A DNA stretch of 64,000 bases from an uncultured bacterium (GCA_964458305.1 CAYWIH010000005.1:1591-65590), one strand, 5' to 3'. Counted from the stretch's first letter, positions 13,271 to 55,804 are shown. The notes: generated by a model not told the origin, from the letters alone. Made by a program: numbers and translations.

Positions 13271-14920
13271 TCAGACTTTCAGTAATTTCCGTAATAATTC
13301 GCGATCTTCTGGCTTAGCCGATAAACGACCATTTTCTAAATCGCGAATCCAACTTTGACTTTTACCGACTTTTTGAGCTAAACTACGCTGAGAAAATCCT
13401 TGACGCTTTCTAGCTTCTAAAATCTGTTTGGCACTGAGATCTTTGCTTTTTCTAGATCCGAATCTTTGATGTTTTTTGCGCTGCTTCTTGTGGATTAATT
13501 TAGTCAGCTTTTCTTGCCATTCTGTGGGTAAATCGAAACCTAAAAGACGTGCTTTGACGAGCATATTCCATTTACCTGGAGGGCTAGAATCAATTAAAGA
13601 TCGATCGCTTTTGGCATCATTAATCCAAAATTCTACTGCTGCATCGCCATCTTCGGGAATATTGGCTAATTTAGCCCACAAAGGTTGAATTTCTATTTTG
13701 TAGGTAACGGGGTCAAAAATAGGTTTAATCCCGTAATAATTGAGGGTTTCTAAGTCGCTTTCAAAAGTTCGCAACAAACGCTTTCTAAAATCTCGCTGTA
13801 AAGCTGCTCGCTCTATTTTATCGTTACCATAAGCAACTTGCATTAATTTAGAGATTGTAATCGGCTGTTTTGTCCCCATTTTAGTTTTAAATAGCAGCCA
13901 GAGCATCATTCTGGCCGCTCCTTCATGTTGCTGCCAAATTGTGGCGATCGCATTTAAAAGGAATTTAGGCAAAGTGCCGTATTGATAGTAAGCAATTTTG
14001 TCTTTATAGCCTTGTTTGTTTAAAAAGTATTTTGCCCAAATACCTGCTTTGATTCTAAATGTTAGACCAATTAGATGCTTACAACCCAAAGAATCTTCTT
14101 GAAAATGATGTTTTATTTCGAGTAAATTCCAAATACGGCTGTTAGCGAAAGAAAAACCATTGACTTTACCTTGTTGGGGCCAGTCGATCGAGGCGATAAT
14201 TTTGCAAGGTTGTTGAGCGAGATCTTTGATGATGCTTAGTTTAGTTGCTTTACTGAGATCTTTGCGTTTATCTAAACCCAAATATTTTTCGATTTGTCGA
14301 TCGCTGATGACAAATTCTTGTTCCCAAGGTCGTTCTAATGTTGTAGCATAAGCAGCATAGATTAGGTGCAAACAAGCAGCTCTAATATCTATGCTGGCAA
14401 TGGCATATCGAGCTGCTTTTTCTTTTAATGCTTGAGGTACTTCGGATTTAAGTTCGTCAGTAATTTGAAAACTAATGCTTGCTTTTCCTTGTTTTAGAGA
14501 TCTTTGATAATATAAATTTTCTTCGGCATCGGTTTGCCAAGCTAAGGTTTTAGCACTACTTAATAAGTTACTTCCTTCCCAGATTACGATCGAAGAAGCG
14601 AGGGAATTATTTTTACCATTAATAAAAAGATCTTGACTGGTTAAGACATTTTTAGCTGCTTTATAGCGGCCTTTTTTGGGTGTTAAAGGTACGGGGCTGC
14701 CGATCGGACAGCTAACGATACATTGAGGATCTTCGTGGTGGCCTTGGCAATTATTACATAATTCTGTTTCTATTTGATAATGTTGTTCTCGATTGGATGT
14801 TATGGCATTTGTAGGACAGTGAGGTTGACAAATACCACAGCCAAAACAACTATTAGTAATTGTGTAACCTGTTGCAGTCTTTTGTGATTCCATCTCGAGG
14901 GTAGCTTGAGTTTTTGCCAT
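13271..14920 (-). CDS. cnfR: CnfR/PatB-type nif transcriptional activator (2x[4Fe-4S] ferredoxin-like N-terminus + XRE HTH C-terminus)
   Basis: 549 aa. It has CFGCGICQPHCP and CNNCQGHHEDPQCIVSCP motifs at the N-terminus. The C-terminus has an HTH (FSQRSLAQKVGKSQSWIRDLENG). This architecture matches PatB/CnfR of Anabaena and Leptolyngbya. Confidence 0.8.
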   Translation of the reverse strand: MAKTQATLEMESQKTATGYTITNSCFGCGICQPHCPTNAITSNREQHYQIETELCNNCQGHHEDPQCIVSCPIGSPVPLTPKKGRYKAAKNVLTSQDLFINGKNNSLASSIVIWEGSNLLSSAKTLAWQTDAEENLYYQRSLKQGKASISFQITDELKSEVPQALKEKAARYAIASIDIRAACLHLIYAAYATTLERPWEQEFVISDRQIEKYLGLDKRKDLSKATKLSIIKDLAQQPCKIIASIDWPQQGKVNGFSFANSRIWNLLEIKHHFQEDSLGCKHLIGLTFRIKAGIWAKYFLNKQGYKDKIAYYQYGTLPKFLLNAIATIWQQHEGAARMMLWLLFKTKMGTKQPITISKLMQVAYGNDKIERAALQRDFRKRLLRTFESDLETLNYYGIKPIFDPVTYKIEIQPLWAKLANIPEDGDAAVEFWINDAKSDRSLIDSSPPGKWNMLVKARLLGFDLPTEWQEKLTKLIHKKQRKKHQRFGSRKSKDLSAKQILEARKRQGFSQRSLAQKVGKSQSWIRDLENGRLSAKPEDRELLRKLLKV

Positions 14921-20951: not shown

Positions 20952-23900
20952 TTAAAAAACGGTATTATTCGTCCATTTTGTAATGGTGGTTTCTAGATCT
21001 TCGATAACGATCGGTTTACTGAGATAATCATCCATACCGACATGCAAGCATTTTTCGCGATCGCCTCTCATGGCGTTACCAGTCAAGCCGATGATGATGG
21101 TGTGTTGTTCTGCTCCTTCTGTTTCGCGTAAAATACGAGTAGCTTCGTAACCGTCCATAATTGGCATTTGACAGTCCATTAAAATAATATCGTAATCTTG
21201 TTCTCTCCATCTTTCGATCGCTTCTTGACCGTTAACAGCTTCATCAAAAGAGTATCCGAAACTTTTCAGGGCGCAAGAAAGGACAAAACGATTGTCGGCA
21301 TAATCTTCGACAATGAGAATTTTAAGAGTGCGATCTTTTGGTTCTAAAGGAGTAGAATTAGCAAAATCGGATGAAGAAATTGCCGAGCGATCTTGATTGT
21401 TGACTGTCTCTAAAGGAATTTTAAACCAGAAAGTAGATCCAGAGCCTAAAGAACTTTCAACGCCTATTTTGCCATTCATTAACTCGACAATGCGGCGACA
21501 AATAGTCAAACCCAGTCCCGTACCTCCATATTTGCGGGTAGTGGAAGCATCTGCTTGAGTAAAGGGTTGAAAGAGACTGTTTTTAATTTCTGGGGAGATG
21601 CCTATTCCAGTATCGGTAACTTTAAAAAGCAGAGTAATTTTATTGGGATTATTTTCATCTCGATCGACATAAGTAACCGAAACATCGATCGATCCGGTTT
21701 CGGTAAACTTAATCCCATTACCGACGAGGTTGCTAATAACTTGTTGGAGTCGAAAGTTATCGCCGTATAGGTTTTTAGGAAGATCTGAATCAATATTAAA
21801 GTTTAATTTTAGATCTTTTTCTGATGCTAAGGGACATAGACAATCAAAGAGATCTTGAAATAGCTTTTCTAAGTTAAATTCTTTAAATTCTAATTCTAAT
21901 TTTCTTTCTTCGAGTTTGGACAGATCGAGAATATCGTTAATCAGACCTAGCAATTTCTCGCCGTTTACTTTGAGAGTTTGTAATAACTTGATTTTCTCTG
22001 GGTCTTGTTCTTGTTGCAGTAATAATTGACTGACACCGAGAACTGAATTCATCGGGGTGCGAATTTCATGACTCATATTAGCTAAAAATTCGCTTTTAGC
22101 TTGGTTGGCAGAATCGGCAGCTCTGGCGGTAGCGATCGCTTTTTCAAGGGCTTGATTGTTGTCTTTTAGTTCCCGTTCGATTTGCTTGCGATCGCTAATA
22201 TCCATAACTATCCCGTAAAGCAAAACCCCTTTTGATTTTTCCCCTTCTGGGCTGCTAATATTGGTGGCACGACCGATCGTGTTGATGTGGCGCAACTGTC
22301 CGTCGGGACGATAAAAGCAAAGGTCTATATTGTAAGAAGTAAAGTCTTCTAGCAATCGATTGGTAGCTGTTTCTAGCTTTTTGCGATCTTCTGCGGGATG
22401 GTATGATAATAATTCAGCTAAAGTTGGCGGTTCGCTTTCTGGGTCGAAGCCGTAGATCTCAAATAATTCTTGCGACCAAACGGGGATAGTGTTGTAAAGA
22501 TCTTTAGCCTTGGTAATTTTTACTTCCCAATTACCCAAACGAGCCAATCTTTGAGCCTCTTTGAGTTTGATCTCGCTTTGTTTGAGTGCTTCTTGGGCTT
22601 GAAGGCGATCGGTAATTTCGACGACTACCGTACCTACTCCGAGACCTTCATTGACAAAATTAACGGGATAGTAGCTAGCTTGCCAAACTCGATCTGTTTC
22701 GGGATCTGCTGCTGTTGTGCCGCGAATTTCGATATTATTAATAGTCTGCTGGGTTTCGAGTACTTGTTTTAAAATCGATTCGATGTACGATCCTAAGTTT
22801 AAGACCTTTTTTTTCCCAGTCTTACTGATATTTTTTCCCTTTACGATTGTAGAAAATACTTCTGTAGGAGTTTTTCCGATATGTTCGGCGATGCTCGTAC
22901 CGTTAATATCTGCTAAAGCTTGGTTGATTCGCAAGTGTTTGAGATTTTTATCGTGCAAACTCAAACCTACGGGACTGTTATTGTACAAATTTTCTAATAA
23001 AATATTGGCTTGAGATAGTTCTTTTTGTACTTTTTTGAGTTCGCCAATGTTAACTAAGGTAATGACGATGCCTTCTTTTGTCCCGTCTTCTTTCAAATAA
23101 TTATTGATTCGCATCAATAATTCTTCGCCGGTTTTGGAGATATTAACTTCTTGCTCGATCGGCTGGGAAGTTTTTTTAACTGTTTCGAGAATTTCAATTA
23201 AATCTAAGTTATTTAAATTGTGAGTCAGTTCGGAAATGGGACGATTAATATCTGCGGGCCTTAGATTAATAGCTGAAGTTGCGGCTGGGGTGAATTTGCG
23301 AATATTTAGCTCGAAATCGAGAAATATGACCCCGATATCGGTGCTGCGGAGTAAATTATCGACATCGTTATTTAGTTGAACTAATTCTTGAATTTTAGAT
23401 TGATATTCTGCATTAACTGTATATAGCTCTTCATTTACCGATTGCAGTTCTTCGTTAGTACTTTGCAATTCTTCGTTAGAAGATAATAATTCTTCGTTGG
23501 TGGCTTGTTGTTCTTCGTTATTTGTTTCTAATTCTTCAATGGTAACTTGCAGATTTTGGCGAGTTTGCCGCAGCTCGTATTCTAGTTCTAAAATTTGCTC
23601 GGTGGCTTGTTTTTCTGCTTCAAAAGGTAAAGCTGTGTTGGATGAAGCGGTAGCTTTTTCTATTTCTAAAACGACAATTAAATATTTCTCACCGTTGCGA
23701 TCGCTCGGATCTAATCCTACTTTGAGATTGACGCTTTTATTTTCTCCATCTTTAATTAGATTAATTCCGGTGTATTGAATTGGTTTTTTATCTCTTTTGG
23801 CGCAGTGTAGGGCGGTAGAAACGGGTAATTTTAGGGCGGGGTTAATAATTTCGGTGATATCTAAATTAGCTTGTCCTACGGGAAATTCTAAGAGATCCGC

Positions 23901-25523
23901 AGCATTGTAAAATATACGCAGGAGTCGGTTGTCTTCGTCGACTAACAAGCAAGTTAGCTCTCTTTGGGGCAGACAATATTTAAAAGCTTCTGCTAAAGAT
24001 CGATCTATCTTATCTTTTCTGGATTTGTTGCGAGCTTTATAATTAAAAGATGGAATAAGAGTCTGTCGCCTCATCGGCATCAAAGAGAAAGAAACGTCTT
24101 TACGCTTGCGAAAGATTTTCCATTTTGGTTCGATCGGGCTAAATTCTTCGGTTAAGTCTGCTAATGTTTCCGAACTACCTAAAAATAAAATTCCTTGTTT
24201 GTCTAGGGCATAGTTTAGCAGTCTTAAAACTTGTTGTTGCAGTTGAGGCTGCATATAAATTAAAACGTTGCGACAGCTAACTAACTGCATTTGGGAAAAG
24301 CCAGCATTTTTTGTTAAGTCGTGGGGAGAAATAATTAACATTTCCCTCAAACTTCGCCTGACTTGATAGCTTTCTCCGGTGTAGATAAAATATTTTTCTA
24401 ACCTTTCTGGGGATATATCGTTAATAATACTTTCTGGATAAACTCCACTGGCTGCTATTTCTAAAGCTTTATCGTCGATGTCGGTAACAAAAATTTTCAC
24501 CTGTAGGGATTTATTTGCTTTTTCTAAGGCTTCATCGATTAAAATTGCCATAGAATAGGCTTCTTCTCCTGTAGCGCAAGCGCAAACCCAGATTCTGAGT
24601 TGTTCTTCTGGGTTTCGATCGGCAATAATTTTAGGTATTATTTCTGCTTCTAAATATTCCCAGGCCGGCCTGTCGCGGAAAAAACAAGTGACTCCGATCA
24701 GCAAATCTTGACGCAGGGATTTTTGCTCTTCTTCTGCATTTTCGAGCAGTTTAATATAATCGTCGATATTTTTATTGCGGGTTAAAACGCAGCGATTGGC
24801 GATCCGCCGCGAGATGGTACTAATTTTATAATGAGAAAAGTCTACTTCTTCTCGTTCTGCTAATATATCTAAAATTTCCTGCAGTTTGTCCGAGGCGATC
24901 GAACCGGCTTCGTTAATTATTGCAGAATTATAGGCTCTAAAAAAGTGAATTAAATCGAATACTGTAGCGGCTAAATCTTCTGGAGAAAGTATTTCATCTA
25001 CTAAACCTGAAGGTATCGCACTGGTTGGCATGCTGGTAAATTGGGCTGTTTCGGGAGATTGAACTAATGCCGTACCTCCTGCTTTGCTAATTGCTTCGAG
25101 TCCTTCTTTTCCGTCGCTTCCCGTACCCGAGAGCAATATTGCTATTTTTCTAATGCTTTCTTGCTCTGCTAAAGATTTCAAAAATCGATCGATCGGATAG
25201 TTTACTTTTGTCCCTCGATCGCTTAATTTTAATTCTCTATTTTTTAAGATTAAATTTTTTCCTGGTGGCAGTAAATAAACTTGACTTGGCTCTAAAATCG
25301 TACCATCTTCGATCGCAACGACTGACATTGCTGTTTCTTTTCGTAAAATTTGGCCCATCATGCTTTTATGATTTGGAGACAGGTGCTGCACCACTACGAA
25401 AGCTGCTTTCGGAGTATCTGGTAAACGGCGAAAAAATTTTTGTAATGCTTGAACTCCCCCCGCAGAAGCTCCAATACCAACTACACACAAACTTTTAAAA
25501 TTATTACCAAGTCGATCGTTCAT
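20952..25523 (-). CDS. CheB-CheR fusion / PAS / hybrid histidine kinase with receiver
   Basis: 1523 aa. It has an N-terminal CheB methylesterase-like region ([14 protein letters not shown]), a CheR SAM-methyltransferase region and a NEEL-repeat coiled coil ([26 protein letters not shown]). PAS domains, HisKA ([10 protein letters not shown]), HATPase (GTGLGLTI) and a C-terminal REC ([12 protein letters not shown]) follow. Confidence 0.85.
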
Positions 25524-29572: not shown

Positions 29573-30271
29573 TTATAAATGGGGTAATTTTTTTTCTAAT
29601 ACTTCGATTCGCCGAATCAATTGCTCGATTAAATTATCTTTGAGATCTCGATTTAAAAGATTGAGAGAATTATCTTGAGATCTGACAATACGACCCGGAA
29701 TACCAACAACGGTACAATCGGGCGGCACGTCCGTCAATACTACCGAACTCGCACCGATCCGAACTCGATCGCCGATGTAAATATTTCCTAAGATCTTCGC
29801 TCCCGCACCAACAGTAACATTTTGACCTAAAGTAGGATGGCGTTTGCAGTCTCGATCGCCAGTTCCTCCTAAAGTCACATCTTGATAAATCGAGCAATAA
29901 TCGCCGACAATAGCCGTTTCTCCGATCGCCACTCCCATACCGTGGTCGATGAATACTCCTTTACCGATCTTAGCTCCGGGATGAATTTCAATTCCGGTAA
30001 TTAATCTGCCTAAATGAGAGATTAAACGGGGTAGGAGAGGAATTTTTAAGTACCAGAGCTGATGGGCTATTCTATGTAAAATTAAAGCTTGCAAGCCAGG
30101 ATAACAAAATAATACCTCTAGCCAGTTGCGAGCGGCGGGATCTCGCTCGAAAATAATTTGCCAATCTATTTTTAATAACTCCCACCAGTGAAGGTTTGAA
30201 GTGGAATCTTGATATATTGAAATGTTTAATTTTTTTTGAGAATCGTTTTTAGTTGCGATCGGCTCTAACAT
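29573..30271 (-). CDS. cysE: Serine O-acetyltransferase (nif-associated CysE = NifP)
   Basis: It has hexapeptide-repeat acyltransferase motifs ([28 protein letters not shown]..). The track ORF starts at a TTG (30274), and ATG is the next codon (30271). Confidence 0.85.
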
Positions 30272-30444
30272 CAAATTCTACGCTTGAAAGTTGATAAAGT
30301 TTATTTTTTAATGCTTATAGCAACTGAAGGGGTTGAAGTTAGTATAGTCAATCGCTATTAAACTAATTATTATTATTATTCGGTACTCAAAAAAAGCTAA
30401 TCCCAGCTATAGCAATGGTTAAAACCTCGTTTTAAAAAAAATTT

Positions 30445-30467
30445 GGGTAGGGGTACGAGTATTTTTT
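30445..30467. repeat. Inverted copy of the 22-bp element (GGGTAGGGGTACGAGTATTTTTT)
   Basis: It is the reverse complement of the unit at 30897-30940 with one mismatch. Confidence 0.85.
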
Positions 30468-30896
30468 GAATGGGGTTCGATTATTTTGGGAGCGAGGGAT
30501 TGATATTTTTGTACTCGATTTCAAGCCAAATATATCCAAAGGATCGCCCCAATCGATCCCCTGTCGGGCTTAACTAAAATTTGTACTCACAATAATCTCA
30601 AATCTTAAACGGTTCTATCCCTTATCAAATCTACCTTTAGACTATTTTAGTACTCGAGATAAAAGCTTAAGATACGTAGGAATAGCAAATACCACCCCGA
30701 AAAAATGTTAAATTAGCTACAGAATTTGAATTCCGTGATAGCACTGGGGAAGTTGGAGTTTTTCCCCCAGGCTTTTATCTAGCCCAACCAACCTGAATAC
30801 AAAACTAAATGCGATCGAAAAACAGAACGAAGATTGCTATAAGCCCGATCTAGTAACGATTAGAGCTTGAGTACTGTAATACCAGCCCCCCAAAAG

Positions 30897-30940
30897 AAAA
30901 ATACTAGTACCCCTACCCAAAAATACTAGTACCCCTACCC
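30897..30940. repeat. Perfect tandem duplication of the 22-bp unit AAAAATACTAGTACCCCTACCC
   Basis: Read directly. The units are 30897-30918 and 30919-30940, and the core TACTAGTA is palindromic. Confidence 0.9.
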
Positions 30941-31227
30941 CAAGAAAAAAATCAGACCCTCATCAGTTGGGAGTTAGGAGTATTGAGTACTAGATTAATT
31001 AACTCTAATAAATCTAAACTGAGTACAAAAAAAAACGAGTTAAATTCGGCAATGGTATAAAGAATACAACGTATCTAAGCCGCAGAACAAAAGTAAAGCG
31101 ATTTATTTCTTAATACTCGGAAAAATTTAGGTCAGGGAAGAATAGTTTTTGTTATGTTTCACTTCACGCTTTAACTTTAGATCGCTGGTAAATATCGTTC
31201 AATTATATTAATATTTCACGGAATTCA

Positions 31228-32691
31228 ATGTTACAAAATTCAGGCATTGTTACTACCTCAGATGTAAACACTGTAAGTAAGCCCGTTAGTGGTTGTGCAT
31301 CTTCTGGATGCGGTTCGCCAAGTACTGAAGTTCAAGATAAAAAGATACAAGAAAGAATAGCCAAACATCCTTGTTACAGTGAAGAAGCGCATCACCACTA
31401 CGCAAGGATGCACGTAGCAGTAGCACCAGCTTGTAACATTCAATGTAACTACTGCAACCGGAAATACGATTGTGCTAACGAAAGTCGTCCTGGAGTGGTC
31501 AGCGAATTATTAACTCCAGAAGAAGCAGCTCATAAAGTTTTGGTAGTTGCCGGACAAATTCCACAAATGTCAGTATTGGGAATTGCCGGCCCGGGAGATC
31601 CCCTAGCCAACCCGAAACAAACTTTTCGCACCTTTGAATTGATTGCAGATGAAGCACCAGATATCAAACTTTGCTTGTCAACTAACGGATTGATGTTACC
31701 CGAATACGTCGATCGAATTAAAGAATTAAATATCGATCACGTCACCATTACCATTAATATGGTAGACCCAGAAATCGGCACGCAAATTTATCCTTGGATT
31801 CGTTACAATCGCAAACGCTACACTGGATTAGAAGCAGCAAAAATCCTTCACGAAAAGCAAATGGAAGGATTGCAAGCACTCGCAGAAGCAGACATTTTAT
31901 GTAAAGTGAACTCGGTATTAATTCCGGGGATCAACGATCGCCACCTAGCAGAAGTCAATAAAGTCATCAGATCTAAAGGTGCGTTCATTCACAATATTAT
32001 GCCGTTAATTTCTGCTCCAGAACACGGCACCCACTTCGGTTTGACCGGACAAAGAGGGCCCAAACCAAGCGAACTAAAATTCGTTCAAGATTCATGTTCT
32101 GGCAATATGAAAATGATGCGCCACTGTCGTCAGTGTCGGGCCGATGCAGTAGGATTGTTAGGAGAAGACCGATCTAAAGAATTTACTAAAGATAAGTTCT
32201 TAGAAATGAGTCCAGAGTACGATGTAGATAAGCGTCAGGAAGTACATCAAACAATCGAACAATTCCAAACGCAACTCAAAAAAGAAAGAGTAGAAAAAGC
32301 CGCAGCTAAAAAAGTCAAAAAAGACAATCCAAAAATATTAGTAGCCGTAGCAACCAAAGGCGGCAGAATAGTCAACCAGCATTTCGGTCACGCTAAAGAA
32401 TTCCAAATCTACGAAGTAGACGGAGTCGAAGCCAAATTTATCGGACATCGCAAAGTAGACCAATACTGTCAAGGCGGTTACGGTGAAGAAGCCACCCTCG
32501 ATAACGTCATCGCTGCGATCGGAGACTGTAAAGCCGTTCTCGTTTCAAAAATCGGCGATTGTCCCAAAGAAAAATTACTTGCGGTTGGTATAGAAGCAGT
32601 CGAAGCATATCAGGCGATCGATACCGCAGCTATAGATTTCTACGAACAATACGTTTCGCAGAAAACCCCCCTCTCAGGAGTTAAATCATGA
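31228..32691 (+). CDS. nifB: NifB (radical-SAM FeMo-co biosynthesis protein with C-terminal NifX-like domain)
   Basis: 487 aa with the radical SAM motif [14 protein letters not shown]. The C-terminal NifX/NifB-type domain reads [26 protein letters not shown]. Confidence 0.95.
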
Positions 32692-39616: not shown

Positions 39617-39849
39617 CAATAATTTTTTAAAATTTCGGGCAATATAACAATTACTAACTTAATAATTGATTGCCTCTTTCTAACATAAGTTAATATTCGT
39701 TTTTGAGTACATATTCCCTCAATATATCTGTATAAGATTTTACCAAAAAAAACTAATTTTTGTTTGCATTGCTAATTTTTTTTAGATTCGCTGAGATACC
39801 TGCGATCGCAGATCGCCTAATTTACCTCTAAACAGTCAATTTTTCTATC

Positions 39850-41292
39850 ATGAAATCTAAAACTAAAATCGCCGCACTTTTAAACGAACCTGGTTGCGAC
39901 CACAATCACAAAAAAGATAAAGATAAAAACAAAGCTTGCAAACAACAAGCCAAACCCGGAGCAGCTCAAGGTGGATGTGCTTTTGATGGTGCTTCAATAA
40001 CTTTAGTTCCGATTACCGACGCAGCCCATTTAGTTCACGGGCCGATCGCTTGTTCTGGAAATTCTTGGGGCAGTCGGGGCAGTTTATCTTCGGGGCCTAC
40101 TTTATATAAAACAGGATTTACGACGGATTTAAGCGAAAACGATATTATTTTTGGCGGTGAAAAGAAATTATATAAAGCAATTTCTCGGATTATTAAAGAA
40201 TATCAACCCGCCGCAGTTTTTGTTTATTCTACTTGCGTAACGGCATTGATTGGAGACGATCTCGATGCAGTTTGTCAAGCCGCAACAAAGAAATTTAACA
40301 AACCAGTAATTCCGGTTCATTCTGCGGGTTTTGTAGGTAGTAAAAACTTGGGCAACCGATTGGCAGGAGAAGCATTATTAGAACACGTGATCGGTACTGG
40401 CGAACCGGAATATACTACCGATTACGATATTAATTTAATCGGAGAATACAATATTGCCGGAGAAATGTGGAACGTTTTACCCTTATTTGAAAAATTGGGA
40501 ATTAGGGTACTGGCAAAAATGACCGGAGATGCTTGCTATGAAGAAATAACTACAGCACACCGCGCCAAACTTAACGTAGTAATTTGTTCTAAGGCATTAA
40601 TCAACGTAGCCCGGAAAATGGAAGAGCGTTATGACATTCCTTATATCGAAGCATCATTTTACGGCATCGAAGATATCAATAAATGCTTGCGAGATATTGC
40701 GGTTAAATTAGGAGATAAAAATTTACAAGAAAAAGTAGAGAAATTAATTGCTTACGAAACTGCCAAACTCGATCGGGCTTTAGCTCCTTACCGAGAAAGA
40801 TTAAAAAACAAACGCATGGTATTGTACACCGGTGGCGTAAAAAGTTGGTCGATAATTGCAGCAGCTAAAGAGTTAGGCATGAATGTCGTCGCTACGAGTA
40901 CCAGAAAAAGCACCGAAGAAGATAAAGCGCGCATCAAAGAATTATTAGGTAAAGACGGGATCGCCCTAGAAAAAGGCGGAGCGACGGAAATACTTAAAGT
41001 AATTGAAAAAACCAAAGCCGAGCTGCTCGTTGCTGGTGGCAGAAACCAATATACAGCCCTCAAAGCTCGCATTCCCTTCCTCGATATTAACCAAGAACGA
41101 CACCATCCCTATGCAGGATATTCGGGACTGGTAGAAATGGCTAAAGAAATAGACGAAGCTCTTTACAGCCCAATATGGGAGCAAGTACGTTCGATCGCAC
41201 CTTGGCAGCAGCAGCAAGAAGCATCGGTAGCAAGGGGCACATCGGCAGCAAGAGCAATAACGGGACTGAGAAATAACCCGTCTGAATTCTAA
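39850..41292 (+). CDS. nifE: NifE FeMo-co scaffold subunit
   Basis: 480 aa, NifD-like, with GCAFDGA, HGPIACSG and STCVTALIGDD motifs. Confidence 0.95.
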   Translation: MKSKTKIAALLNEPGCDHNHKKDKDKNKACKQQAKPGAAQGGCAFDGASITLVPITDAAHLVHGPIACSGNSWGSRGSLSSGPTLYKTGFTTDLSENDIIFGGEKKLYKAISRIIKEYQPAAVFVYSTCVTALIGDDLDAVCQAATKKFNKPVIPVHSAGFVGSKNLGNRLAGEALLEHVIGTGEPEYTTDYDINLIGEYNIAGEMWNVLPLFEKLGIRVLAKMTGDACYEEITTAHRAKLNVVICSKALINVARKMEERYDIPYIEASFYGIEDINKCLRDIAVKLGDKNLQEKVEKLIAYETAKLDRALAPYRERLKNKRMVLYTGGVKSWSIIAAAKELGMNVVATSTRKSTEEDKARIKELLGKDGIALEKGGATEILKVIEKTKAELLVAGGRNQYTALKARIPFLDINQERHHPYAGYSGLVEMAKEIDEALYSPIWEQVRSIAPWQQQQEASVARGTSAARAITGLRNNPSEF

Positions 41293-41347: not shown

Positions 41348-42724
41348 ATGACTACGATCGACGCTCCGAAAAAATCTTTAACTGTCAAACCCCTCAAAAT
41401 TTCCCAGCCTTTTGGTGCATCTTTAGCTCTTTTGGGATTAAAAGGTACTATTCCCCTATTTCACGGCTCTCAGGGCTGTACTGCTTTTGCTAAAGTGCTG
41501 TTAGTACGTCACTTCCGCGAAGCTATTCCCCTCGCAACTACAGCAATGACTGAAGTGAGTACTATTTTAGGAGGGGAAGATAATATCGAAAAAGCAATTC
41601 TTACTTTAGTCGAGAAAAATAATCCCGAAATAATCGGTCTTTTCACTACGGGTTTGACCGAAACTAGGGGAGACGATATGAAAGGTATTTTAAAAACCTT
41701 TCGCGATCGCCATCCAGAATTAAATTATTTGCCGATCTTCTTTATTTCTACCCCAGATTATAAAGGAGCTGCCGAAGACGGCTATAAAGCTACTGTAGAG
41801 CAAATAGTAGCTTACGATTACGCATCATTAACAGAGTCGATCGAATCGATCGATAAGATCGCTTCGGTACACCCTCAACCTCAAGTTACTATCTTAGCCG
41901 GTTCTTTACTTTCTCCTGGAGATGTTAGAGAAATTAAAGAGATCGTTTCAGCTTTCGGTTTGCATCCTTTAGTAATACCGGATCTTTCGGAGTCTTTAGA
42001 CGGTCATCTAGTCGATGAAAAATATAGTAGCGTGACTTGCGGGGGTACTGACTTAAAAGATTTAAAAAGGTTATCCGATTCTATTTTTACCGTGGCGATC
42101 GGAGAAAGTATGCGATCGGCCGCTGAAATTTTAAAAACTAAATTTGGCACTGAATATAAATTATTTCCCAGTTTGGCTGGCTTGAGCGGGGTAGATCGAT
42201 TTGTTTGGCAATTGGCTCGGATCGTTGCAAGAACCAGCGATCCCCATTTTATCAGTCCCCCACGAGTTCCCGCAAGTTTCGATCGCGCCCGTCGTCAGTT
42301 ACAAGATGCGATACTCGATACCCATTTCTATTTTGGCCGCAAAAAGGTATGTTTAGCATTAGAGCCAGATTTACTTTACCAAACCAGTTGGTTATTACAC
42401 GAAATGGGCGCGATCGTCTCGGGGGCTGTAACTACTACTAAATCGCCGATTTTAGCAAATTTACCGACAGATACGGTCACGATCGGCGATCTGAGCGATT
42501 TTGAAGAGATGGCTGTTGGTGCGGATTTATTAATTACCAATTCTCACGGTAAAGATATCGCGAAAAAACTCGATATTCCTCTTTATCGCATGGGTTATCC
42601 CATCTTCGATCGCTTAGGAAACGGTCAACGCTGTACGATCGGCTATCGCGGTACGATGCAGTTTCTTTTTGATGTCGGCAATATTTTTCTCGAAGCAGAA
42701 GAAACGGCGATCGCTCCCTATTAA
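41348..42724 (+). CDS. nifN: NifN FeMo-co scaffold subunit
   Basis: 458 aa, NifK-like ([27 protein letters not shown]), directly after nifE. Confidence 0.93.
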   Translation: [458 protein letters not shown]

Positions 42725-48432: not shown

Positions 48433-50310
48433 ATGATTCCAAATATCGATCTATCTCCTCTATTTGTTTCCTTAAAAACAGCCACCACAGCCACAGCGAT
48501 CGCTTTTATATTGGGAATTATTGCCGCAAGAATAATGTTAAATTATCGCGGTAGGGCTAAAGGGGCGATCGATGCTTTATTTACTTCTCCTCTGGTTTTA
48601 CCTCCGACAGTGTTGGGATTTTTATTGCTGTTGCTGTTAGGAAAAAACGGGCCAGTTGGTAAATTGTTGGGATTGTTCGATATTACTATTATTTTTACTT
48701 GGTACGCTACTTTAATAGCGGCGACAATAGTGGCTTTTCCTCTGGTTTATAAAACAGTATTGGGGGCTTTTAAGCAAATCGATCCTAATACGATCGCGGC
48801 TGCAAAAACGTTAGGGGCTTCGGAATTTACGGTTTTTTGGCGGATCATGCTTCCTTTAGCCAAACCTGGGGCTGTTTCGGCTATTTTTTTAGCATTCGCT
48901 CGGGCTTTGGGGGAATTTGGCGCAACTTTAATGTTGGCTGGTAACATTCCAGGTATTACCCAAACTATTCCTATTGCGATCTATATTGCTGCAGAAAGCG
49001 GTCAAATGGATCTGGCTTTGGCTTGGGTAATTGTAATTTTAATTATTTCTTTTGGGGTAATTATTGCTGTTAATGCTTATTCGGATCGTAAAAGTACTAC
49101 TTTAGCGATCGCGCGCTCGAAAAAAGGATCTTTTAGCAAACGTTCCCTAAAATCTCTCAAAAAAATATTTCTTGCTACTACCAACTCAAAACATTTTATC
49201 AAAGGTTTCTATCCTTTTTCTAACTCTCCAGAATTGATCGTAGAGATTGAAAAAAGGCTTCCAGGAGGGTTTTGTTTGGATGTATCTTTTCACACTAGGG
49301 ATAAACCACTGGGTTTGTTAGGGGGATCTGGATCGGGAAAAAGCTTAATTTTAAAGTGCATAGCTGGGATCGAAACGCCCGATCGAGGCAAAATAATCTT
49401 AAATGGAAGAACTTTATTCGACAGCGATCGAGGGATAAATATACCCAGCAGATCTCGTCGAGTCGGTTTCTTATTTCAAAATTATGCTCTTTTCCCCCAT
49501 TTAACGGTAGCCGAAAATATTGCCTTCGGAATGAGAAAAAAAAGATCGGCCCGGAAAATAGCAGCAAAATTAATCGATGTCGGTTTGGAAGGATATGGCG
49601 ATCGCTACCCATCCCAACTATCGGGAGGCCAACAACAGCGAGTAGCATTAGCTAGAGCAATAGCCGCAGATCCTGAAGTATTATTATTAGATGAGCCTTT
49701 TTCTGCTTTAGATACTTATTTGCGCGATCGCTTAGAAAAGGTTTTAATCGGTAGTTTAAGTAACTATTGGGGTTCGACTTTATTTGTCACCCACAACTTA
49801 GAAGAAGCATATCGAGTTTGCGAGAATTTATTAGCGATCGAAAACGGAAAAATCTCGGCTTTTGGCAAAAAACAGGATATATTCGAACGTCCACCTACAA
49901 AAACGGTTGCTTTAGTTACTGGGTGTAAGAATTTTTCTGATGCTGTAGCGATATCTTCAACAGAAATAAAAGCGATCGACTGGGAGTGTAATTTACAAGT
50001 AGTCGAACCAATTCCCGATCGTCTTGCTTATGTTGGTTTGCGGGCCCATCAAGTTATTTTTCCTGAAGATTTTAGCCAAGAGAATACTTTTAATTGTTGG
50101 TTGGTGGATCTTAGCGAAACTCAACATCGAGTTACTCTATACTTAAGATTGCATCGATCTGGAAATAATGGCCAAGACTATCATTTACAAGCAGAAGTGT
50201 TTAAAGAAAAATGGGCTACTCTCAAAGATCGTCCTTTTCCTTGGCCGGTTCGACTTGATTCTTTGCAATTAATGCTTTTACCGTCTGAGAATCGATCCAA
50301 TGATGGTTAA
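48433..50310 (+). CDS. modBC: Fused molybdate ABC transporter permease-ATPase
   Basis: 625 aa. The N-terminal ModB permease has the EAA-like loop (AAKTLGASEFTVFWRIMLPLAKPG). The C-terminal ABC ATPase has GGSGSGKS, LSGGQQQRVALARA and LLLDEP, plus a TOBE-like tail. Confidence 0.9.
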   Translation: MIPNIDLSPLFVSLKTATTATAIAFILGIIAARIMLNYRGRAKGAIDALFTSPLVLPPTVLGFLLLLLLGKNGPVGKLLGLFDITIIFTWYATLIAATIVAFPLVYKTVLGAFKQIDPNTIAAAKTLGASEFTVFWRIMLPLAKPGAVSAIFLAFARALGEFGATLMLAGNIPGITQTIPIAIYIAAESGQMDLALAWVIVILIISFGVIIAVNAYSDRKSTTLAIARSKKGSFSKRSLKSLKKIFLATTNSKHFIKGFYPFSNSPELIVEIEKRLPGGFCLDVSFHTRDKPLGLLGGSGSGKSLILKCIAGIETPDRGKIILNGRTLFDSDRGINIPSRSRRVGFLFQNYALFPHLTVAENIAFGMRKKRSARKIAAKLIDVGLEGYGDRYPSQLSGGQQQRVALARAIAADPEVLLLDEPFSALDTYLRDRLEKVLIGSLSNYWGSTLFVTHNLEEAYRVCENLLAIENGKISAFGKKQDIFERPPTKTVALVTGCKNFSDAVAISSTEIKAIDWECNLQVVEPIPDRLAYVGLRAHQVIFPEDFSQENTFNCWLVDLSETQHRVTLYLRLHRSGNNGQDYHLQAEVFKEKWATLKDRPFPWPVRLDSLQLMLLPSENRSNDG

Positions 50311-53300
50311 AAACGTTTTCATAAATTAGGTTATAAACTTTAAGTTTTCCTTGTTGTTGAGATATTAACCCGGATAAAAGTAATTCGGTAATTTCTGGGG
50401 AATTATTTGAGCTGAAATCGCTTCGATTTAAAATTTTGCGGTAGATTTTTAATATTTCTGGAAAAAAAGATTGTTTGCGATCGATTCGATCGCGTATGGT
50501 GCGTAAATGTTGGGGTTCGTCTTGAAATTCCCAGTTGGCGATGATTTTTTCGCTTACTAGCTTATCGATCGATTCTTTTTCTTTTCCTGGTTCTATTTGG
50601 AGCTGGGAATTGAGAATTAAATCGCAGATTTTTTGAGTTAAAAAAGGTTGTCCTCCCGTCCATTTTAAGATTTCTTTGCAGATAATTTGTACGTTATCAT
50701 ATTTGTTAGTCAAACCGGCTGCTAAGGGTTCTATTTCATGTAATTTAAACCCTGAAAGAGCGATCGCCCGACCGAGATTAAAAGGAGTGCGTTCTTTATT
50801 TTTAATTAGATTAGAGGGGCTGGCTACTCCTAATAAGACAAAAGTAAGTCGTTGATATTGAGGATAATCGGGACGTTGGTTATAAAGAGAACGAATGAAT
50901 GCAAAAAAGTCATCCATATCAAATTTTAAGCTAGAAATACTGTCAATTTCGTCGATAAAAATAACTATTGGCTCTTGAATTTGTTTTAATAAAACTTCTT
51001 TGATAAATTTACTTAATTTTTGTACTGGGGAAAACTTTTCTAAACTTTCCCACCAAGTTTCGCAGTCAAAATTGTCAGAGAGATTTAATCGATAAGTTAA
51101 CTCATCAATTAAACCAAAATACCATTGTTCGATAGTAATATTTTGATTGCCAATTACGGTTAAATCGACAGAAATACAAGTAAATCCTTCAGTTTCTAAT
51201 TGACGAGCCATTTGCACCCGCAAACTAGATTTTCCCATTTGCCTAGCATTTAATATATAACAAAATTCTCCTTTTTTTAAAGCATTATATAAATCTCGAT
51301 CGGCTTGTCTAATTACATAACTAGGAGAATCAAATCGCAAACAACCTCCAACTTGATAGCGATCGATTTCGGCTAATTTTTCATTTTGTAATAAAGCATT
51401 TTCGATCGCGATCGCCATTTGAGAAGAAATTAATTTTAATATTTCCAATCTTTCTTCAGTAAAAGCCCCTACTGTTAAATTATTTTCAAGATAAATTACT
51501 CCGATCGATTTGCCTTTTCCTAATAATGGCAAGCATAAAATAGATTTTATTTCTTTTTTTATGATATAAGGATCGTTGCTAAAAATACTTTCAGATCTAG
51601 CATCTTTTAAAATAATATTTTCTTGAGTTCTTCTCACATAATTAATCAAAGAAAGAGGAAATCGATCGCTATTTTCGCAATTCAAATCTAAAAATACGAT
51701 CGGCCGTTCGGTTGCAGCTGTTAATAATTGTTTTCCGGGATTATCTAAGATAATTGCTCCAGTTTTAGCCCCAACATTTTCGATAGTAAATTTTAAAATA
51801 ATATCTAATAATTTGTCTAAATCCATTTCTTTTTCTAAAGAGCGAGAAGTTTTAATAATAGTGACTAAATCAATATCTTCTGAAGTTATTTTATTCGAAC
51901 TACTTCCTGAAGTATCGGTAACTTTTGTTTGATTTTTTTTCGACTGTTTAGAAAAGAATTGAGAATGTTCTTTTTCCATTGCTTTAACTTTTGCATTCGC
52001 ACCCCATTTTTGATAACAATAACGAGCATCTTGTAAATAAACCTCAGCAATTTTAACTTTATTTTCTGCTAAGTAAAATCTTCCTGCTAGTTCGTTTGCT
52101 AAAGCCTCTTCTTGAATGAATTTATATTCTTTTGCTAAAGCTATAGCTCGATCGTAATGTTCAATCGCTGCTAATTTTTTCCCTAATACTCGATATTTTT
52201 CTGCTTCGACTAAATGATATTTATTTAAATTATTTTCGGGGCAGTGATGCGCCCATTTTTTCATTTTCTTTTGATTGTTTCTTATTTTTGATAAAGTTTG
52301 TTTTTTATCTAATTGGCTCGATAATAAAATCAAAGAATTATAAAAATAAAACTCACGAACCGCTATCAATCCATTACAATCATTTAAATATTCTTCAGCT
52401 AGAATAGTATTTTTTAATGCTAAATTGTAATCTAAAAATAAATAATATAAATGACTTAGATATGTATGTATCCGTAAAAATGGCGATCTTTGCTTTGTAT
52501 TTTTTAATTGTTTAATTGTTTTTTTTATTTGTAAATCAAAAATATCGTTATTTTCTTGTAAATTAAATATATAATCCTGCAAAAAATTATACCAAATAAT
52601 CAATGCTTTTCTTTGGTAAACAATATCTTTATATAGCTCGAGTTTTTGTGATATTTTTGCTAAAGACTTACCACTACTATATAAATTTAAGAAATATTGA
52701 ATTAAAGCCATATTGCTACATTCAAGATCTCCTGTTTCCATTGCTTTTGAGTAAACTTCTAAAAAAGGTTTTATTGTCGTTTTAATATGCTCTTTCCAAT
52801 GTCTAATACCGAAGTTAAATGTCAAAATTATTTTAGCCTTTTCCTTTTTATCCTCGAAGCGATCGATTAAATTTATGCCAATTTTACCAAATTTATAACT
52901 AAGATCGAGATCTTCAAATTTACTAGATAAAATTAAGCCATAAAAAGTATAAGCTGAAGCAGATGAGGAAGTATTTCCATATTTAATCGATAAATCAATT
53001 TGTTTGAATATAACTAAAGGTAATAGTTCGGGAATAGCTATATAAACAACATTATAAATACTGGACAAGATCCGCATTGCTGCTAATTTATAAGGATCTT
53101 TCATTAAAGGTAAATCTGTTAAACTTTCAATATTTTTGCCAGCTAAGATTAATTTAGTATTGATAATTCCTAGCAAAATATCAAATTTACTAGGCTTTAG
53201 TGGCAAATTTATTCCCAACATTTTTAGAACTGGTAGAACAATTTTTACCGCGTCTAATAACTTATTTTGAGCTACATATCCTTGAATTTTGATTTCATAT

Positions 53301-55804
53301 ATTTTTACTCGATCTAATAAACTATTAGAATTTGCTAAAACTCGATCGCCAAACTCTTCCATCGCGATTAAATTGCCATTTAAGAAAGCTAATTCTGCGG
53401 CTTCTGTATATATTTCTAAGCTGAGATCGTAAGTTATTTTCCAACTATTTGTATCTAATAAAGCCAAACAAATTTTTAAATAATTAAATGCTGTTTGATA
53501 TGCTGCCGATCGCTTGGCTTTTTTTCCGGCAATTAAATTTAATTTTGCTAATTGATTTTTTTCTGGCTGAGTCTCGATTAATTCTCTACCTAAATTTAAT
53601 TGATTGACGATCTTAAATATTTGCTTTTCTCGTTCTTTTTCTGGGATATTTGCTAATAATAATTTTCCGATTTGCCAGTGTAAAACTGGTTTTTTTTCTG
53701 GAGAAATTAAAGAATAAGCTGCTTGTTGAATGCGATCGTGACTAAATTTATATTCTATTTCGATCTTCTCTAAATCTAGTTTAATTCCTAATTCGATCGC
53801 TTTGTAAGCATCCCCGAGAGGATAAATTAAATTTGCGGCGATCGCTTCTCTTAATAATAATGCTGTTTGTTGCGGAGTATTTTGGGAAATAATTGCTAAC
53901 GTTTCGATTTCAAAGCGGTCGCCAATACAAGCAGCTAATTGTAATACTTTTTGGATTTCTGGATTTAATTTTTTAATCGATCGCGATAATAATTCGACGA
54001 CATTTTCAGTAATATCTCTTTTTTTAATTGCTTTTAGATCCCATTCCCAATTGCGCTCTCGATCGTTAAAATATAAAAGATTTTCGGCATAAAGCGATCG
54101 CAAAAATCGATCGATAAAAAATGGATTTCCATCTGTTTTACTTAAAATTAATTCTCCTAAATTTTCTGCAGCTTCAAAAGAACAATTAAAACTATCTACA
54201 ATTAAATCATTAATTTCAGACTTTTTTAAAGGATCGAGTAATATTTTCTCAATTTTAACCCCTGCTTTTTCAATTTCTTCTACAGTAGAAATCAAAGGAT
54301 GGAGCGGACTTACTTCATTATCTCGATAAGTGCCAATTAATAATAAATAATTCTCTTCTAATTCTGTTAAAATCGACTCTATTAATCCTAAAGATGCCCG
54401 ATCTGCCCATTGTAAATCGTCTAAAAAAATTACTAATGGATGTTCCGATCGAGCGAAGACTTTAATAAACCTTTTAAAAACAAAATTAAACCGATTTTCT
54501 GCTTCTTTTGGCGGCAAAATAGCAACTTCAGCAACTTCACCAGTGATTAATTTTAACTTCGGAATTACCTCAATAATTACCCCACCATTAACCCCCAAAG
54601 CAGTTAATAATTTGTCTTGCCATTGCTTTAAATTAGCTTCAGTTTCAACTAATAAATACTCAATTAAATCCCCAAAAGCTTGCACGATCGCGCTGTAGGG
54701 AATATCTTTTTGATATTGGTCGAATTTACCCGATATAAAATATCCTTGCGCTTCAGTAATCGATCGATATATTTCTTTTACTAAAGCTGATTTACCAATC
54801 CCAGAATAACCAGAAATAAAGACGGCAGCACTGTTTTTATTTTCATTATCTCTAACCTTTTTAAATGTCTTTAATAAGGTTTCTATTTCATTTTCTCTGC
54901 CGTAGATTTTTTGAGATATTTGTAAGCGATCGCAAATATCTTGACTGGCTAATTGAAAATTATCTATTCTCCCTTTAGTTTTTAATTGTTGCAAACAACA
55001 TTCTAAATCTGCTTTAATTCCCCAAGCAGTTTGATACCTTTCTTCGGGATTTTTTGCCATCAGTTTCGTGACAATATTTGATAGCACTAAAGGTATTTCT
55101 AAATTATTTTGCTGGGGTATTTCTGCGACTTTTGCCAAATGACAATATAATAGTTCTAATAAATCTTCCGTTAAAAAAGGTCTTTTATTTGTTAGTAATT
55201 CATAAAAAGTTACTCCCAATGAATAAAAATCAGTTCGACGATCTAAAGCTAGGTTAATCCTTCCCGTTTGTTCTGGAGAAATATAAGCTAAAGTTCCTTC
55301 TAAAATTTGCGGATTTTTGAGAGTAGGATTTTCTTTTGGTAACCTCGTTGCAATTCCAAAATCAATAATTTTAACTTCTTTAGTCGATATATTATAAACA
55401 ATATTAGCCGGATTTATATCTTTATGAATGATATTAGCTGCATGAATTTCTTGCAACCCAGCAGTTATTTTTATCGCTATTTCTAAAAATTCTTCGATCG
55501 TAAATTTACGCTCTTTTGCGATAATATCTAACGATCGCCCGCCAAAATCTTCAAAAGCAATTACTAAAGTATTTTGATATTTTTTTAGATCGTAAGCTGC
55601 GATAATACGATCGCTTTTTAAATTTTTGGTAATTTGATATTCTTGCTCGTATCTGGTTAGTTCTTCAGTACTAGGATAATTTGGGTTAAGAAATTTTAAG
55701 ATAACCGGACGAGTAGTTTTTTGCTCAACTCCTCGATATACTAAAGAGTTATTGCTTTGATAGATGGGATCGAGGGTTTGATATCCACTCAGTTCGATCT
55801 TCAT
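50222..55804 (-). CDS. Giant multidomain signalling protein: Ser/Thr kinase - AAA_16-type ATPase - TPR-like region - GAF - AAA_35-like ATPase module
   Basis: 1860 aa. It has a Hanks kinase (HKDINPANI, DFG, SPEQ), a P-loop (ISGYSGIGKSALV), a long helical-repeat region and a GAF domain. The C-terminal roughly 380 aa begin YQVGGCLRFDSPSYVIRQADRDLYNALKKGEFCYILNARQMGKSSL, typical of stand-alone cyanobacterial AAA-like (AAA_35) proteins. Confidence 0.85.
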   Translation of the reverse strand: MKIELSGYQTLDPIYQSNNSLVYRGVEQKTTRPVILKFLNPNYPSTEELTRYEQEYQITKNLKSDRIIAAYDLKKYQNTLVIAFEDFGGRSLDIIAKERKFTIEEFLEIAIKITAGLQEIHAANIIHKDINPANIVYNISTKEVKIIDFGIATRLPKENPTLKNPQILEGTLAYISPEQTGRINLALDRRTDFYSLGVTFYELLTNKRPFLTEDLLELLYCHLAKVAEIPQQNNLEIPLVLSNIVTKLMAKNPEERYQTAWGIKADLECCLQQLKTKGRIDNFQLASQDICDRLQISQKIYGRENEIETLLKTFKKVRDNENKNSAAVFISGYSGIGKSALVKEIYRSITEAQGYFISGKFDQYQKDIPYSAIVQAFGDLIEYLLVETEANLKQWQDKLLTALGVNGGVIIEVIPKLKLITGEVAEVAILPPKEAENRFNFVFKRFIKVFARSEHPLVIFLDDLQWADRASLGLIESILTELEENYLLLIGTYRDNEVSPLHPLISTVEEIEKAGVKIEKILLDPLKKSEINDLIVDSFNCSFEAAENLGELILSKTDGNPFFIDRFLRSLYAENLLYFNDRERNWEWDLKAIKKRDITENVVELLSRSIKKLNPEIQKVLQLAACIGDRFEIETLAIISQNTPQQTALLLREAIAANLIYPLGDAYKAIELGIKLDLEKIEIEYKFSHDRIQQAAYSLISPEKKPVLHWQIGKLLLANIPEKEREKQIFKIVNQLNLGRELIETQPEKNQLAKLNLIAGKKAKRSAAYQTAFNYLKICLALLDTNSWKITYDLSLEIYTEAAELAFLNGNLIAMEEFGDRVLANSNSLLDRVKIYEIKIQGYVAQNKLLDAVKIVLPVLKMLGINLPLKPSKFDILLGIINTKLILAGKNIESLTDLPLMKDPYKLAAMRILSSIYNVVYIAIPELLPLVIFKQIDLSIKYGNTSSSASAYTFYGLILSSKFEDLDLSYKFGKIGINLIDRFEDKKEKAKIILTFNFGIRHWKEHIKTTIKPFLEVYSKAMETGDLECSNMALIQYFLNLYSSGKSLAKISQKLELYKDIVYQRKALIIWYNFLQDYIFNLQENNDIFDLQIKKTIKQLKNTKQRSPFLRIHTYLSHLYYLFLDYNLALKNTILAEEYLNDCNGLIAVREFYFYNSLILLSSQLDKKQTLSKIRNNQKKMKKWAHHCPENNLNKYHLVEAEKYRVLGKKLAAIEHYDRAIALAKEYKFIQEEALANELAGRFYLAENKVKIAEVYLQDARYCYQKWGANAKVKAMEKEHSQFFSKQSKKNQTKVTDTSGSSSNKITSEDIDLVTIIKTSRSLEKEMDLDKLLDIILKFTIENVGAKTGAIILDNPGKQLLTAATERPIVFLDLNCENSDRFPLSLINYVRRTQENIILKDARSESIFSNDPYIIKKEIKSILCLPLLGKGKSIGVIYLENNLTVGAFTEERLEILKLISSQMAIAIENALLQNEKLAEIDRYQVGGCLRFDSPSYVIRQADRDLYNALKKGEFCYILNARQMGKSSLRVQMARQLETEGFTCISVDLTVIGNQNITIEQWYFGLIDELTYRLNLSDNFDCETWWESLEKFSPVQKLSKFIKEVLLKQIQEPIVIFIDEIDSISSLKFDMDDFFAFIRSLYNQRPDYPQYQRLTFVLLGVASPSNLIKNKERTPFNLGRAIALSGFKLHEIEPLAAGLTNKYDNVQIICKEILKWTGGQPFLTQKICDLILNSQLQIEPGKEKESIDKLVSEKIIANWEFQDEPQHLRTIRDRIDRKQSFFPEILKIYRKILNRSDFSSNNSPEITELLLSGLISQQQGKLKVYNLIYENVFNHHWIDSQTVKALIAKNQVEPAKEKDDL

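Follow-up and report, generated by a model that had tools for sequence, protein, structure and literature searches.

The divergent genes nifP and nifB of an uncultured cyanobacterium are separated by a spacer of 953 bp, read directly in a stretch of DNA of 64 kb (here called the window). The spacer carries several copies of a GAGTAC box and three copies of a 22-bp unit, two in tandem and one inverted. What are these repeats for? An earlier note on this DNA had regarded them as candidate CnfR cis-elements facing each gene and, as an alternative, had considered the 22-bp repeats as the ends of a mobile element. The first reading is supported by a motif known from the literature and by a module match found throughout the phylum: The spacer very probably consists of two divergent copies of the canonical cyanobacterial CnfR-type nif upstream activating module.

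NCBIfam and Pfam searches identify, leftward from the spacer, cysE/nifP, a gene encoding a DUF2949 protein, nifV, nifZ and nifT. Rightward, nifB, a small ORF and nifS follow, with nifH and nifE located beyond. In the ORF list, the nifP call reaches a TTG at 30274. The earlier note had placed a CnfR/PatB gene at 13271-14920, and the domain architecture found by the same searches fits CnfR: An N-terminal 4Fe-4S dicluster combined with a C-terminal XRE-type HTH is the arrangement described for CnfR/PatB (PMC8510180). The product is presumed to be CnfR-like, with orthology judged by architecture and location. The spacer is 100% identical in the Logan assembly SRR6462991, which may share one source sample with the window's assembly, a MAG with the accession GCA_050331515.1. 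This means, the perfect 22-mer tandem discussed below is not an artefact of one assembler.

The 22-mer AAAAATACTAGTACCCCTACCC occurs as a perfect tandem at 30897-30918 and 30919-30940 (+). Direct reading and a motif search agree with the earlier note on both copies. The single copy on the - strand is also present and has one mismatch, as had been described. It extends from 30445 to 30466, so that the end given previously, 30467, was one base too far. When up to three mismatches were permitted, three matches were obtained in 64 kb, all of them in the spacer; 100 shuffles yielded 0. Both strands of the 64-kb window together contain 23 copies of the box GAGTAC, compared to a shuffle mean of 13.3. 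Seven of these 23 GAGTAC/GTACTC copies are located in the 953-bp spacer, where ~0.2 would be expected (Poisson P ~2e-9), and the reported excess over chance is thus confirmed. TGAGTAC at 30868, 30984 and 31020 (+) and GTACTCA/GTACTCG at 30383, 30511, 30583 and 30650 were all found where they had been claimed. Their polarity is real, too: Four boxes point leftward in the left half of the spacer and three rightward in the right half, each set toward its own gene. Three kinds of elements were absent from the earlier note. These are a box with one mismatch, TGAATACAA, at 30794, which is the nifB-side 1A, degenerate 22-bp units at 30875-30896 (+), 30467-30488 (-) and 30489-30510 (-), and the conserved extended -10 elements of both promoters.

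Upstream of nifB1, nifB2 and nifP of Anabaena variabilis, and likewise between nifB and nifP of Leptolyngbya boryana, TGAGTACA(A) has been published as conserved motif 1A/1B/1C (bioRxiv 10.1101/2025.04.01.646610; PMC8510180). As the heptamer of the window matches this motif, the boxes are known and not new. Two A/C-rich motifs, 2A and 2B, have been described between 1B and 1C (bioRxiv 10.1101/2025.04.01.646610). By their position, number and A/C-richness, the 22-mers of the window would correspond to 2A and 2B. CnfR-type promoters have an extended -10 and no -35 (PMC8510180). The same elements are found in the window: Both sides of the spacer comprise three TGAGTACA boxes in the same orientation (1A of nifB with one mismatch) and two A/C-rich motifs between 1B and 1C. 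In both promoters, an extended -10 follows 1C at a constant distance and a -35 is missing, and the genome contains a cnfR-like gene (13271-14920). A sigma-70 -35/-10 scan yielded one weak match, fewer than in shuffles, and no -35/-10 pair at either extended -10. This scarcity of matches is consistent with promoters lacking a -35. An NtcA site (GTAN8TAC) was not found in the spacer. A search for known RNA families between 30000 and 31500 detected none; its sole match, RsaJ with an E value of 0.09, is far under the gathering score and meaningless.

How widespread is this arrangement? For comparison, 80 listed nifB loci from species-representative genomes were used, 67 cyanobacterial ones and 13 from other phyla. 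The source species is not among them, and the best match has 79% identity. A profile HMM was built from 62 modules of other cyanobacteria, with the window excluded, and nhmmer was run with it on both strands of the 64 kb. Exactly two matches were obtained, the two spacer halves, and nothing else at E up to 10. Each of them extends over almost the entire model, 1A and the -10 included (Table 1). Both halves match the phylum-wide module end to end. Among the listed loci, a module is located at most 900 bp upstream of nifB in 63 of the 67 cyanobacterial ones, and 32 of these have a divergent second copy; this count is partly circular, as the profile derives from the same loci. The profile matched none of the 13 listed non-cyanobacterial nifB loci. 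In almost every listed cyanobacterial locus, GAGTAC is found three times upstream of nifB at constant spacing. Where a divergent nifP is present in these loci, a mirror set of GTACTC occurs on the far side. The listed non-cyanobacterial loci do not contain a comparable GAGTAC array. Both modules of the window are present, complete, oriented toward their own genes and conserved across the phylum. In L054 and L066, two of the listed cyanobacterial loci, more than 2 kb separate the module from the nifB match downstream, compared to the usual few hundred bp. This points to an inserted element or to a nifB gene interrupted at its 5' end.

Table 1. Coordinates of the two promoter modules, additional boxes and relevant genes in the 64-kb window
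Feature	Position	Strand	Sequence, match or remark
cnfR-like gene, presumed trans-acting activator	13271-14920	-	549 aa; Fer4 / 4Fe-4S dicluster, residues 20-82; HTH_3 (XRE type), residues 500-538
cysE/nifP	29573-30271	-	NCBIfam and Pfam
Complete nifP module and core promoter, mirror orientation	30603-30307	-	nhmmer, model positions 9-304 of 316, 94.9 bits, E 8.1e-29
Predicted extended -10, nifP promoter	30314-30322	-	TGCTATAAG; fits nifP-type consensus CTGATATAAGCAG
nifP box 1C	30383-30389	-	TGAGTAC on - strand; motif search, module alignment
nifP motif 2B	30445-30466	-	AAAAATACTCGTACCCCTACCC; 21/22 identical to consensus
nifP motif 2A, degenerate	30467-30488	-	CAAAATAATCGAACCCCATTCA; 15/22 identical to 2B, typical of other species
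nifP unit 0, degenerate	30489-30510	-	22-bp register
nifP box 1B	30511-30517	-	CGAGTAC; 128 bp before 1C, long spacing class (124-129)
nifP box 1A	30583-30589	-	TGAGTAC
Extra distal box	30650-30656	-	CGAGTAC; 67 bp distal to nifP 1A; its flanks and those of 1B share 93% identity (direct repeat D2)
Complete nifB upstream activating module and core promoter, 1A to extended -10	30792-31071	+	nhmmer, model positions 21-307 of 316, 110 bits, E 1.9e-33
nifB box 1A, degenerate	30794-30802	+	TGAATACAA, one mismatch; aligns to 1A of the model
nifB box 1B	30868-30874	+	TGAGTAC; motif search, module alignment
nifB unit 0, degenerate first 22-bp unit	30875-30896	+	TGTAATACCAGCCCCCCAAAAG; shares 2A/2B register; phylum consensus of unit 0 aaaAA..C..g..CCcc
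nifB motif 2A (22-mer)	30897-30918	+	direct reading, module comparison
nifB motif 2B (22-mer)	30919-30940	+	22/22 identical to consensus of 62 2B motifs
Conserved A-tract after nifB 2B	30941-30951	+	module comparison
nifB box 1C	30984-30990	+	TGAGTAC; 116 bp after 1B, short spacing class (114-120)
AT-rich element downstream of 1C	30995-31015	+	TAATnAnT..AATAAAT; consensus TAATaAaTccAATAAaT in 62 modules
Extra non-canonical TGAGTACA box, nifB side	31020-31027	+	36 bp after 1C; ~-48 to -41 from predicted start site
Predicted extended -10, nifB promoter	31053-31061	+	TGGTATAAA; TGnTATAA
nifB	31228-32691	+	NCBIfam and Pfam
TGAGTAC upstream of nifE	39704-39710	+	
nifE	39850-41292	+	NCBIfam and Pfam

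The geometry of the module was determined for the 62 modules from other species; totals of 64 include the two of the window. Box 1A precedes 1B by 70-75 bp (74 bp for nifB and 72 bp for nifP in the window), and 2B starts 50-52 bp after 1B in 64 of 64 modules (51 bp on both sides of the window). The period of 2A and 2B is 22 bp in 56 of 64 modules, among them both of the window. A third, weaker unit in the same 22-bp register, unit 0, follows immediately after 1B. From 1B to 1C, all species read alike: TGAGTACA is followed by an A/C-rich stretch, ..AAATACTnGTACCCC.., AAAATACTAGTACCCCTACCC, an A-tract, GGGTTT.. and again TGAGTACA. In the window, the upstream flank of nifB 1C, GGGAGTTAGG, fits the conserved gGgTTt. 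At every one of its 22 positions, the 22-mer of the window has the majority base of 2B across the 62 modules. These modules also share a conserved element TAATaAaTccAATAAaT, located between 1C and the extended -10. In 61 of the 62 modules, the distance from 1C to TGnTATAA is 65-68 bp. In the window, nifB 1C is followed by TGGTATAA at 68 bp and nifP 1C by TGCTATAA at 66 bp, and from these elements start sites are predicted near 31068 (+) for nifB and near 30307 (-) for nifP. Between the end of 2B and 1C, the modules have either 42-46 or 52-56 bp, two classes that differ by one helical turn; the window has one of each (44 bp for nifB, 56 bp for nifP). In modules L001-L063 and the window, this is the two-class distance, and the other distances within the module are fixed. 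A palindrome within the 22-mer, TACTAGTA, was considered as recognition core and rejected: It occurs in just 8 of the 62 2B motifs and is, therefore, incidental.

Could the inverted 22-bp repeats instead be the termini of a MITE-like insertion of about 500 bp, as proposed in the earlier note? As in MITEs, inverted 22-bp repeats are located a few hundred bp apart: The 22-mers are mutually inverted at a distance of ~430 bp and are part of a longer imperfect inverted repeat, I1, whose 75-nt arms are 71% complementary. However, these would-be termini are found 50-52 bp after 1B in all 64 modules. This register is constant across more than 60 species, even in genomes where nifB lacks a divergent nifP. 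Between the would-be termini, each gene has its conserved boxes 1A and 1B. Its flanks, AAAAAAAATTT|...|CAAGAAAAAAA, are the inverted A-tracts of the conserved module and not a direct target-site duplication. Furthermore, no other copy was detected in the 64-kb window, neither with up to three mismatches nor with the profile. In contrast to MITEs, the spacer has neither a target-site duplication nor dispersed copies within 64 kb, and its position relative to the nif genes is conserved phylum-wide. An insertion of this kind is contradicted by these data and extremely improbable. Two divergent promoter modules account for the inverted repeat.

The perfect tandem on the nifB side deserves separate consideration. 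Here, 2A and 2B agree at all 22 positions, compared to 9-19 of 22 in the remaining modules. One might assume that a recent slippage or gene-conversion event generated a duplication without a function of its own and that one copy is sufficient. The restriction of complete identity to the window would be in line with this, and so would the near-identical nifB-side pair of L029, which has 79% NifB identity and is the closest among the matches listed. The identical pair suggests concerted evolution in the lineage of the window and L029 rather than a new element. By contrast, two units with a 22-bp period are present in essentially every species. As unit number and register are canonical, the module was not lengthened by a duplication, and at most, 2B has overwritten 2A. 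In addition, 2A and 2B have been described as partially redundant, yet both contribute (bioRxiv 10.1101/2025.04.01.646610). A functionless second copy is, hence, quite unlikely.

How might the two canonical modules work? CnfR dependence and the contribution of each motif are transferred here from studies on other cyanobacteria. CnfR binding to the region and CnfR-dependent transcription under low oxygen and nitrogen limitation are known for L. boryana, A. variabilis and Nostoc 7120 (PMC8510180; bioRxiv 10.1101/2025.04.01.646610). Purified CnfR binds such fragments from Nostoc 7120 in vitro (bioRxiv 10.1101/2025.04.01.646610). From distal to proximal, the module would consist of box 1A (TGAGTACA), ~72 bp, box 1B, unit 0, 2A, 2B (consensus AAAAATACTAGTACCCCTACCC), an A-tract, box 1C, an AT-rich element TAATAAAT..AATAAAT and the extended -10 (TGnTATAA) without -35. 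CnfR, an oxygen-sensitive Fe-S/HTH activator presumably encoded 16 kb away, would bind this array under low oxygen and nitrogen limitation, mainly via 2A/2B, with the TGAGTACA boxes contributing. Bound CnfR would then recruit RNA polymerase to the two promoters that lack a -35. The rightward promoter is predicted to drive nifB-fdxN-nifS-nifU-nifHDK-nifENX and the leftward promoter nifP-DUF2949-nifVZT.

Published findings differ on which element is contacted by CnfR: 1B is dispensable in an L. boryana reporter and important in A. variabilis nifB1 (bioRxiv 10.1101/2025.04.01.646610). It is conceivable that boxes and 22-bp units are read by different proteins, with CnfR acting at 2A/2B only and the boxes serving another conserved factor or having a DNA-architectural role. 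Alteration of 2A or 2B (elements IV-V, VI-VII) of L. boryana abolished CnfR-dependent activation of a nifB reporter in Synechocystis, and alteration of 1B had little effect (bioRxiv 10.1101/2025.04.01.646610). A separate role of the boxes would also agree with the observation that motif 1A lowers nifP expression in A. variabilis (bioRxiv 10.1101/2025.04.01.646610). The box spacing of ~72 and ~116/128 bp is much wider than that of a simple operator, and the two 2B-1C classes (42-46 and 52-56 bp), differing by one helical turn, suggest face-of-helix or looping constraints. However, loss of either 1A or 1B halves transcription of A. variabilis nifB1 (bioRxiv 10.1101/2025.04.01.646610). Moreover, the 22-bp units hold a box-like core (TAGTAC vs. 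GAGTAC), so that one HTH could read both, and a second factor is not known. Two separate readers are, therefore, unlikely.

Two boxes of the window do not belong to the canonical set. The position of the box at 31020 is empty in 61 of 62 modules; the sole parallel is the nifP side of L029, at +35. The box at 30650 has no counterpart among the 62 modules. That these TGAGTACA boxes were added in this lineage and serve to retune the module is doubtful. If this were so, the 31020 box, ~-45 of the nifB promoter, could for example mediate a promoter-proximal class-II-like contact, and the 30650 box could for example provide an extra turn of a CnfR-DNA wrap. In a related, similarly doubtful reading, the strict 22-bp period of three units together with the two 2B-1C classes would indicate that a region of ~270 bp is wrapped or looped on an oligomeric activator instead of being composed of independent sites.

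A further TGAGTAC upstream of nifE had been added to the box system in the earlier note. This box exists and starts at 39704 instead of 39703; another TGAGTAC, absent from that note, is present at 41556 inside nifN. For nifE, 80 loci were fetched from metagenomes, and GAGTAC was counted within 400 bp upstream of the gene in 79 of them. It was found in 3 of 79, which is under the chance rate. In three relatives with 93% NifE identity, GAGTAC is absent upstream of nifE, and the homologous place reads CCAGCACA or TTAATACA. Consequently, the nifE box is not conserved and was rejected as a part of the system; it probably arose by chance. In A. variabilis, a promoter was not found upstream of nifE1 (PMC4284476). 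Beside the nifE box, the -10-like stretch TCTATCTGTATAAGATTTTACCAAAAAAAGCTAATTTTT (39725-39765) is almost invariant between the window and L083-L085, the relatives with 93% NifE identity. It shows one or two substitutions, and the surrounding spacer diverges. This stretch may represent a lineage-specific internal promoter or a processed 5' end.

The spacer adds one genome to those with the CnfR-type nifB/nifP promoter architecture known from the literature: The observation is real but ordinary. The L. boryana nifB/nifP region (Tsujimoto et al. 2016, elements I-VIII) resembles the window in three respects. Divergent nifP and nifB operons share one spacer, this spacer contains TGAGTACA boxes and two A/C-rich elements (compared by description), and cnfR is located inside the same nif island. 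Downstream gene order differs: In the window, nifP-DUF2949-nifVZT is arranged leftward and nifENX belongs to the nifB operon, whereas in L. boryana, nifPENXW is leftward. Compared to L. boryana, the window also has one extra box per side, and its nifB-side 2A equals 2B. The genome-specific details are the identical nifB 2A/2B pair, the extra box near the nifB promoter and the extra box distal to the nifP module.

The second known system comprises nifB1, nifB2 and nifP of A. variabilis ATCC 29413 (Vernon et al. 2017; Pratte, Vernon and Thiel 2025), where the motifs are also named CS1-CS3. As in the window, the 8-bp TGAGTACA motif is present three times, A/C-rich motifs lie between 1B and 1C, and an extended -10 is found without a -35. 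The listed Nostocales loci have the same layout as the window. In heterocyst formers, nifP is unlinked from nifB, and the modules are, therefore, not back to back. Nostocales nifB modules have the long 1B-1C spacing (124-129 bp), whereas in the window, nifB has the short (116 bp) and nifP the long one (128 bp).

The window thus contributes a clean and complete CnfR-type nif promoter pair from an uncultured cyanobacterium. For annotation, it suggests where transcription in the nif island starts and how its operons are delimited, and it points to a predicted canonical regulator over the island. In addition, it provides a compact module definition for genome scans for CnfR targets: a 2B register of 50-52 bp, a 22-bp period, two spacing classes and 65-68 bp to the extended -10.

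Several minor features of the spacer and its surroundings were recorded. A perfect 13-nt inverted repeat, I8 (TTGAATTCCGTGA / TCACGGAATTCAA), is formed by 30726-30738 and 31216-31228; ~0.01 such pairs are expected in 1.1 kb. Its second arm ends on the first base of the nifB start codon. The first arm precedes the start site predicted for nifB, so the two arms should not pair in the mRNA. Within the predicted 5' UTR of nifB, a degenerate reverse-oriented 2B-like stretch with an A/T flank (31121-31150) is 70% identical to 30437-30466 (D1); this may be a low-complexity chance similarity. The stretches between 1A and 1B in the two modules show 70% mutual complementarity (30546-30572 / 30840-30866), and the one of nifP contains a potential 10-bp hairpin followed by a T-rich run at 30537-30563 (-), which resembles a terminator. 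The cyanobacterial HIP1 palindrome GCGATCGC is present 47 times in the window, but the 8 kb between 28882 and 36869, which extend from nifV across the spacer to nifD, do not contain a single copy. The nif island is flanked by very long ORFs at 1276-6720 (1814 aa), 20952-25523 (1523 aa) and 50222-55804 (1860 aa).
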